DNA from: Escherichia coli
Lineage (GTDB): Bacteria; Pseudomonadota; Gammaproteobacteria; Enterobacterales; Enterobacteriaceae
NCBI RefSeq assembly: GCF_013122565.1
Contig: NZ_CP053258.1
Strand: one strand, 5' to 3'
DNA: 64,000 bases
The notes under the pieces are model-generated. The model was not told the origin of the DNA. It did not search any database and worked only from the letters and a program-made list of their open reading frames with translations. The stretch's first letter is position 1, and the number at the start of each line of letters is the position of its first letter. This document shows, in pieces, positions 3,777-4,241 of this stretch. The position numbers and the translations under genes are program-made.

Positions 3777-4241
3777 TCAATGGTTTTCTTCTGTCTCTTG
3801 GGTGAGGGTTTCCCAGTCGGCAGGAGGATGTCCTCTTTTTAACATTTTGCTGAATACGGTATAGGCATCTGTTTTTTTACCGTAGGTGCGAAGAGTGTTT
3901 TCATCGTTCATCCATCCCAGAATGATGACTTTCTCTTTTTCACTATAACGAAAGAAGAGACGATAACGACCAGCACCAAATTTTACCCATGACCAGTCTT
4001 TATTTTTCCCTGAGCCTAACGACTTGCCATGACGGAATGCCGGTGATGATGGATTGACCGTGATATGCTCCTCAATCACTTTGTGAACTGCCGCCAATAA
4101 CTTTGTGGCGGCTTTTCTCTAATAATTTTCAGGATCTTTTCCCTTTAATGTCTCGACTTCGGCAACTAAAGCGTCGTAGGTTTCCTGAAAACAGGGATGA
4201 GCATATAGCGCCCAACCATTAACCCTTTGTGGAAAATCCAT
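3777..4241 (-). pseudogene. yhaV: Toxin YhaV (ribosome-dependent RNase) interrupted by an in-frame TAG at codon 41 (4119-4121); only a 106-aa ORF (3777-4097) remains downstream
   Basis: ATG at 4239-4241 overlaps the prlF stop (TAATG). Codons 1-40 read MDFPQRVNGWALYAHPCFQETYDALVAEVETLKGKDPENY, then TAG, then in the same frame RKAATKLLAAVHKVIEEHITVNPSS... to the stop at 3777. Total span is 465 nt, which equals 154 codons plus stop. Confidence 0.65.

Follow-up and report, generated by a model that had tools for sequence, protein, structure and literature searches.

A 64,000-nucleotide stretch of Escherichia coli DNA (contig NZ_CP053258.1, hereafter the window) was found to carry a yhaV gene interrupted by an in-frame amber codon, directly downstream of an intact prlF. 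YhaV is the toxin and PrlF the antitoxin of a chromosomal type II toxin-antitoxin (TA) system, and the copy of yhaV in the window is very probably an inherited loss-of-function allele that is decaying beside the retained prlF. In the proposed course of events, a C>T change would have turned the Gln41 codon (CAG) into an amber stop, and the prlF-coupled translation of yhaV would then end after 40 residues. Of this ribosome-dependent RNase of 154 residues and RelE fold, only the beta-hairpin at the N-terminus and helix 1 would be left, and no functional YhaV would be made. The amber change appears to have arisen once, on a distinct prlF-yhaV haplotype that is now present in several E. coli lineages. 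Likely later steps of decay are R85W (in the window), a TGA at codon 10 (in many carriers) and truncation by an IS66-family insertion sequence (IS) element (in one strain). The intact prlF presumably still makes PrlF, which would persist as an orphan antitoxin and autorepressor. The elements of the locus are listed below.

3777–4241, minus strand: yhaV pseudogene with a premature stop at codon 41; 154 codon positions and the terminal stop.
4119–4121, minus strand: in-frame amber TAG at yhaV codon 41, which is CAG (Gln) in intact alleles.
3987–3989, minus strand: yhaV codon 85, TGG (Trp) as against CGG (Arg) in intact alleles; a second lesion, at an invariant residue.
4241–4576, minus strand: prlF, antitoxin and autorepressor gene, intact open reading frame (ORF) of 111 aa, directly upstream of yhaV.
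4613–4640, minus strand: putative promoter upstream of prlF (TTTGCA, 16 nt, TATAAT), scoring 10/12 in a consensus scan.

The yhaV frame runs from the ATG at 4241 to the TGA at 3779–3777, which gives 154 sense-codon positions, the length of K-12 YhaV. Its translation reads MDFPQ...KDPENY, with the TAG directly after the Tyr, followed by 113 open codons up to the TGA. A preliminary description of the window, made from the sequence alone, had placed the end of the frame at 3777, counted 154 codons and located the TAG at codon 41 (4119–4121), all of which was correct. On alignment to K-12 MG1655, Gln41 (CAG) was separated from the TAG of the window by a single C>T change, in agreement with the earlier proposal that a point nonsense mutation disables the toxin gene.

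The K-12 prlF-yhaV pair (b3129-b3130) occupies the same garD-agaR locus, with the same one-base overlap and the same gene lengths, and its nucleotide sequence is 98.3% identical to that of the window; PrlF differs at 3 of 111 residues. The reconstructed YhaV of the window was ~97% identical to K-12 YhaV with five differences, the stop included. The K-12 protein has its full length and the residues Gln41, Val51 and Arg85, whereas the window copy is truncated and has the R85W substitution. With codon 41 read as Gln, the Pfam family PF11663 (Toxin_YhaV) matched residues 12–150, corresponding to model positions 1–137/138, with an E-value of 3.3e-53. Based on this match and on the identity to K-12, the frame is that of a genuine yhaV orthologue, altered by one nonsense mutation, and did not arise by chance. 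As it stands, the TAG leaves the allele without an uninterrupted ORF for the whole Toxin_YhaV domain, and the 40-aa product spans roughly the first 30 of the 138 domain positions. NCBIfam holds no YhaV model; the full-length sequence, the 40-aa product and the 106-aa ORF that remains downstream of the stop were all without a match there, and no curated NCBIfam cut-off was applicable to the toxin. K-12 YhaV has been shown experimentally to be a ribosome-dependent mRNA endonuclease, and growth inhibition or mRNA cleavage neutralised by PrlF is known only for the K-12 protein (PMC8546651, PMC7781912).

To place the lesions within the family, 980 YhaV homologues were retrieved with phmmer from 1.84 billion representative proteins, and K-12 YhaV was aligned with 51 full-length members of 33–55% identity (n = 52). 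Nine residues were invariant in 52/52 sequences, namely P64, R85, R94, F96, W110, N112, R118, D125 and Y127. Eight of these are kept in the window and one, R85, is replaced by Trp, a change that is probably inactivating by itself judging from the alignment. This second lesion had been overlooked in the preliminary description; the stop itself was confirmed. The columns of V51 and K43 were both variable, with Ala the commonest residue at 51, and for this reason the substitutions V51A and K43N, both found among amber alleles, are probably harmless. At the N-terminus, W10 was conserved in 47/52 sequences and residues 11–40 were free of gaps in all 52.

A structural model of the K-12 orthologue was built by AlphaFold on the family alignment (predicted local distance difference test score, pLDDT, 95.5; predicted template modelling score, pTM, 0.90). 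In the model, strands at residues 5–7 and 10–14 are followed by helices 16–35 and 44–60 and a short helix 78–82; the C-terminal part has strands 84–88, 93–100 and 105–111 and helices 126–135 and 143–153. The best PDB matches of the model, at target template modelling scores (TM-scores) of 0.6–0.79, supported a RelE-like fold; they were PfiT, E. coli RelE, HigB2 and M. tuberculosis RelE. Codon 41 lies in the loop between helices 16–35 and 44–60; because the amber falls between the first two helices, the 40-aa product would consist of the N-terminal hairpin and helix 1 only. R85 is on strand 84–88, the first of the central sheet. A sequence search of the PDB with K-12 YhaV returned no YhaV structure. 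In the legend to Fig. 2 of PMC7781912 the entry 2KHE is labelled ‘YhaV monomer’, and this entry is Thermus thermophilus RelE.

The frequency of the amber allele was determined by megablast in a comparison set of 5426 complete E. coli genomes, about 5160 of which had the prlF-yhaV locus. Carriers were counted with 30-base queries that seed only when the diagnostic base matches, and since these depend on an exact 28-base megablast seed, the 30-mer counts given here and below are lower bounds. The TAG 30-mer was found in 173 genomes and a 51-mer with the TAG in 176, as compared to 4657 genomes with the CAG 30-mer. The alignment to yhaV of other E. coli strains that had been suggested as a check thus gave CAG as the wild-type codon, both in K-12 and in these 4657 genomes. 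Together the two 30-mers accounted for 4830 (173 + 4657) of 5161 locus-bearing genomes, the remainder having other single-nucleotide polymorphisms inside the 30-mer or partial loci. The amber allele is therefore present in about 3% of complete E. coli genomes. The carriers included the whole B lineage (BL21, REL606-type strains, NEBExpress and ATCC 11303) and E. coli C, in addition to many O145:H28 strains, one O121 strain, O18ac:H14 and various animal and human isolates.

The allele is already visible in public annotation. The NCBI Prokaryotic Genome Annotation Pipeline (PGAP) calls yhaV ‘pseudo, internal stop’ in KL53, BLR(DE3), O145 RM9872, E. coli C and 510016; these annotated relatives were the best megablast matches (99.6% identity) and all had the same TAG by alignment. 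The exact 40-aa product occurs on at least 1000 public contigs, under names that include ‘toxin YhaV’ and ‘Uncharacterized protein yhaV [O145:H28 RM13514]’. For the 106-aa ORF 3' of the stop, the exact sequence has been deposited as ECB_02995 (REL606), with ACT44799.1 among its other accessions. No explicit description of the yhaV amber allele was found in the literature searched, and the allele is documented by these annotations. It is thus an inherited, moderately common pseudogene allele already known from RefSeq annotation, and what is new in the present analysis is only the second lesion R85W, the ordered decay series and the population counts.

To examine the origin of the stop, six amber alleles were compared with eight intact alleles over the range of identities, the latter being those of K-12, O157:H7, HS, JCM 5491 and four others. 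When the 800 bases of prlF-yhaV were compared with the window, 167 genomes reached at least 99% identity, while the nearest sampled intact allele was at 98.5%; KL53 differed from the window at 3/800 bases (99.6% identity). Six codon differences were fixed between the two groups: PrlF S41N, YhaV Q41* and V51A, and synonymous changes at yhaV codons 52, 53 and 117. Accordingly, TAG at 41, GCA at 51, GTT at 52, CAC at 53, CTT at 117 and the PrlF residue N41 were shared by 6/6 amber and 0/8 intact alleles. The yhaV changes of this set, that is, the C>T change, V51A and the three synonymous substitutions, are those of the pseudogenes of the B lineage (REL606, BL21(DE3), BLR), E. coli C, KL53 and O145:H28. 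Because all six codons are fixed between the groups, the comparison points to a single origin of the amber stop, followed by descent and recombination, rather than to recurrent mutation. The PrlF protein, the promoter sequence and the position beside agaR were likewise identical between the window and the other amber strains. The upstream neighbourhood differs, in that garD lies directly upstream in the known amber strains whereas a rare sugar-utilisation island separates prlF from garD in the window.

Within the amber haplotype the alleles differ in further lesions. R85W was detected in 137/5426 genomes (TGG 30-mer) and in 0/8 of the sampled intact alleles; the window shares it with B, C and KL53, while O145 lacks it. 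Among the eight intact alleles, variation was restricted to T31, D36 and, in the C-terminal tail, residues 145, 148 and 153, all of them variable in the family. A second stop, W10* (TGG>TGA at codon 10), was detected in 97 genomes by 30-mer, including B, C and 510016, and is absent from the window. All 176 matches to the 51-mer were one base off the window, and in every amber allele aligned that base was the K43N change (AAA->AAT). Unlike in the amber alleles of B, C, KL53 and O145, codons 43 (AAA, K43) and 50 (GCG) have stayed in the ancestral state in the window. Since codon 43 is AAA and codon 10 is TGG, the later lesions K43N and W10* are both missing from the window allele, which appears from its sequence to be a less derived, or a recombinant, member of the amber haplotype. 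The residues at codons 43 and 85 were combined as follows.

Window: K at codon 43, W at codon 85.
O145: N at codon 43, R at codon 85.
KL53: N at codon 43, W at codon 85.
Intact alleles: K at codon 43, R at codon 85.

All four combinations exist, which speaks for recombination within the amber haplotype, or else for a repeated change. The prlF-yhaV segment was 99.6% identical to KL53 and the adjoining agaR-kbaZ flank ~98.7%, and given this difference the haplotype may have been exchanged by recombination. In the O121 strain 201805972 (1..1067), an IS66-family element has taken the place of prlF and of yhaV codons 1–20; decay has gone further here, with the antitoxin lost as well.

The antitoxin gene of the window is intact. 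The prlF TAA (4243–4241) and the yhaV ATG (4241–4239) share base 4241 in a TAATG overlap, and with the open 111-aa ORF this upheld the earlier statement that prlF and its overlapping-start coupling to yhaV were kept. PrlF passed the NCBIfam equivalog NF007429 (AbrB/SpoVT-type DNA-binding N-terminus) over residues 1–111 with 168 bits against a cut-off of 125. Its sequence was identical in 6/6 amber alleles (WP_001300560.1), and the exact sequence was found on at least 1000 public contigs. The promoter-like site is embedded in a ATGCATTTGCAT repeat, a putative operator. The promoter had been described as untouched, which held against other amber strains, the site being identical in KL53, and held only in part against K-12: the hexamers are the same, but the spacer of the window is shorter by 1 nt and shows several substitutions, and the sequences diverge upstream of ~4650.

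PrlF is presumably still expressed from the window allele. Operator binding by PrlF2-YhaV4 complexes is cooperative, and Lon-dependent proteolysis increases when prlF is derepressed (PMC7781912, review of Schmidt et al. 2007, Snyder & Silhavy 1992). Loss of YhaV may weaken cooperative operator binding by PrlF2-YhaV4, and with it autorepression, so that the level of PrlF may rise. As yhaV is the final gene of the prlF operon and is convergent with agaR, a polar effect on other genes is not expected. Orphan antitoxins are abundant in E. coli, and loss of the toxin with retention of the antitoxin is a documented general pattern (PMC10790755).

An error of sequencing or assembly, or a recent private mutation of the isolate, is a barely conceivable origin of the TAG. 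The base at 4121 rests on the single window sequence, and the exact combination of TAG and AAA (K43) was found in 0/5426 complete genomes. However, the same T is present in 173–176 independently sequenced complete genomes, and five further substitutions specific to the haplotype are linked to the stop. Furthermore, the yhaV translation of a contig from the window's lineage, in the draft assembly GCA_018578885.1, was identical to that of the window, including the stop, K43, A51 and W85. This contig has the same island and the same prlF and is 99.56% identical to the window, and the 76 mismatches over 17353 bases identify it as a different strain. As far as sequence comparison goes, the identical allele in an independent assembly excludes both a sequencing error and a private mutation.

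Read-through of the amber, by a suppressor tRNA or through programmed or leaky decoding, would yield low doses of full-length YhaV and hence an attenuated but functional TA pair. The frame 3' of the TAG is open for 113 codons in the window and the codon-10 TGA is lacking, as this proposal would have it. Even so, R85W would persist with UAG read-through or suppression, and it affects a residue invariant in 52/52 family members; 3' of the stop, conserved positions are broken rather than preserved in the amber lineage. The TGA at codon 10 in 97 carriers is beyond rescue by an amber suppressor. Two of the carriers, E. coli B and C, have classically served as non-suppressing hosts in work with T4 and phiX174 amber mutants. 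An Rfam scan around yhaV (3000–5500) gave no element and there was no tRNA gene near the locus. Programmed recoding, in which the part of the ORF behind a conserved stop stays under purifying selection and a recoding signal is usually present, does not fit the loss of R85, the codon-10 TGA of the 97 carriers and the lack of an Rfam element. Taken together, these observations make read-through very improbable.

There is similarly little to suggest that a shorter protein is functional, whether the 40-aa peptide (for example as a co-repressor of PrlF), a C-terminal product restarted at TTG49, GTG55 or ATG111, or a split toxin. The 106-aa ORF (4097..3777) does remain, is called as a gene in some annotations, as in REL606, and keeps the three central beta-strands together with R94, W110, N112, R118, D125 and Y127. 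Against a restart, none of TTG49, GTG55, ATG111 and ATG133 is preceded by a strong Shine-Dalgarno sequence, the best value being -4.8 kcal/mol (GTG55), although this is a weak test given that the prlF start itself scored -0.4. A C-terminal fragment would carry R85W and would lack strands 5–14, helix 16–35 and the start of helix 44–60, a region free of gaps in 52/52 family members and with only two variable positions (T31A, D36V) in the eight intact E. coli alleles. The 40-aa peptide is itself destroyed by W10* in the 97 carriers. The preliminary description had named the same TAG in other strains with a shorter functional protein as the observation that would speak against it; the TAG was indeed found in at least 173–176 genomes, but the shorter functional protein found no support and is most unlikely.

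For the inherited loss of function, then, some observations still weigh on the other side. The window allele is the least decayed amber version seen, being without W10* and K43N. Basal read-through of UAG inserts mostly Gln, and near-cognate decoding would thus restore the wild-type residue at position 41. The tRNA scan found no tRNA gene in the 64-kb window, and a suppressor elsewhere in the genome is possible. As to polymorphism, the six amber alleles had 3 private non-synonymous against 2–3 synonymous changes and the eight intact alleles 5 against 10, a contrast that involves few sites and is not statistically significant on its own.

It is also conceivable, though unlikely, that the PrlF-only state is advantageous and that the amber haplotype persists and spreads between lineages by selection rather than by neutral decay. 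The carriers include B, C, O145:H28, the O121 strain and the divergent, island-bearing lineage of the window. If true, the advantage could lie in the effect of derepressed PrlF on Lon-dependent proteolysis, or in anti-addiction against incoming YhaV-family toxins.

A second disabled toxin gene in the window is that of the HigB-HigA pair.

About 59964–60041: higB 3' remnant, overlapping higA.
60038–60454: higA, intact.

Alignment to O157:H7, which has an intact higB, showed a deletion of ~325 bp covering the upstream region and most of the gene, in line with the earlier report of a higB remnant beside an intact higA. The deletion takes out the upstream region where the operon promoter would be expected. 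Elsewhere the same state is labelled by PGAP as ‘HigB, incomplete, missing N-terminus’, and the junction 30-mer was present in at least 1338/5426 complete genomes. Both pairs combine a disabled toxin with a kept antitoxin ORF and both are common standing alleles; higB was lost by deletion, whereas in yhaV one changed base gave a nonsense codon, with gene length and operon layout unaffected. Given how common the higB deletion is, it is unremarkable to find both lesions together, and the pairing tells little about this particular strain.

The rare island between prlF and garD is ~7.8 kb long and extends from about 4650/4720 to 12493 of the window. Its genes are listed below.

5065–5835, plus strand: DeoR regulator.
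5880–6791, minus strand: ROK protein.
6810–8093, minus strand: Gfo/Idh/MocA oxidoreductase.
8105–8863, minus strand: YdjC/ChbG-like deacetylase.
8876–10228, minus strand: glycoside hydrolase family 4 (GH4) 6-phospho-beta-glucosidase.
10306–11667, minus strand: phosphotransferase system (PTS) IIC.
11742–12059, minus strand: PTS IIB.

A program-made ORF of 332 aa (TTG at 4837; 4837..5835, plus strand) over-extends the DeoR regulator, which in related annotated genomes has 256 aa, corresponding to 5065..5835. Only 3/5426 complete E. coli genomes had the island (~93% identity), and the draft GCA_018578885.1 matched it at 99.6%. In the garD-tdc region (12400–36000), no complete E. coli genome was closer than about 98.6% to the window, which indicates that the lineage of the source strain is poorly represented among complete genomes. 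An origin of the window in another species was considered and rejected, as its identity to E. coli over garD-tdc was about 98.5%.

The prlF-yhaV cassette is flanked by an 8-bp direct repeat, ATGCCCGC, at 4576..4569 (the prlF start codon) and 3765..3758 (just 3' of the yhaV stop) on the minus strand. In the island-bearing strain R32_14_1F the coding cassette is cleanly gone at ATGCCCGC (L007 1925..1940), with the prlF promoter region kept. By its appearance, this junction is the product of a microhomology deletion or else an empty site into which a cassette can insert. The cassette-less junction sequence was present in exactly the three island-bearing genomes and no others of the complete set. 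Clean excision of prlF-yhaV was considered as the general cause of absence of the locus and was rejected, the junction being limited to these 3 genomes.

In this strain yhaV is best annotated as a pseudogene, and prlF as an orphan antitoxin. In roughly 3% of E. coli, BL21 and E. coli C among them, TA inventories that count genes from BLAST hits would wrongly list the module as functional. Beyond correct annotation the significance is little; the allele series, running from the amber to R85W, a second stop and then IS truncation or clean excision, would provide a small, clean example of the decay of a toxin whose antitoxin is kept.
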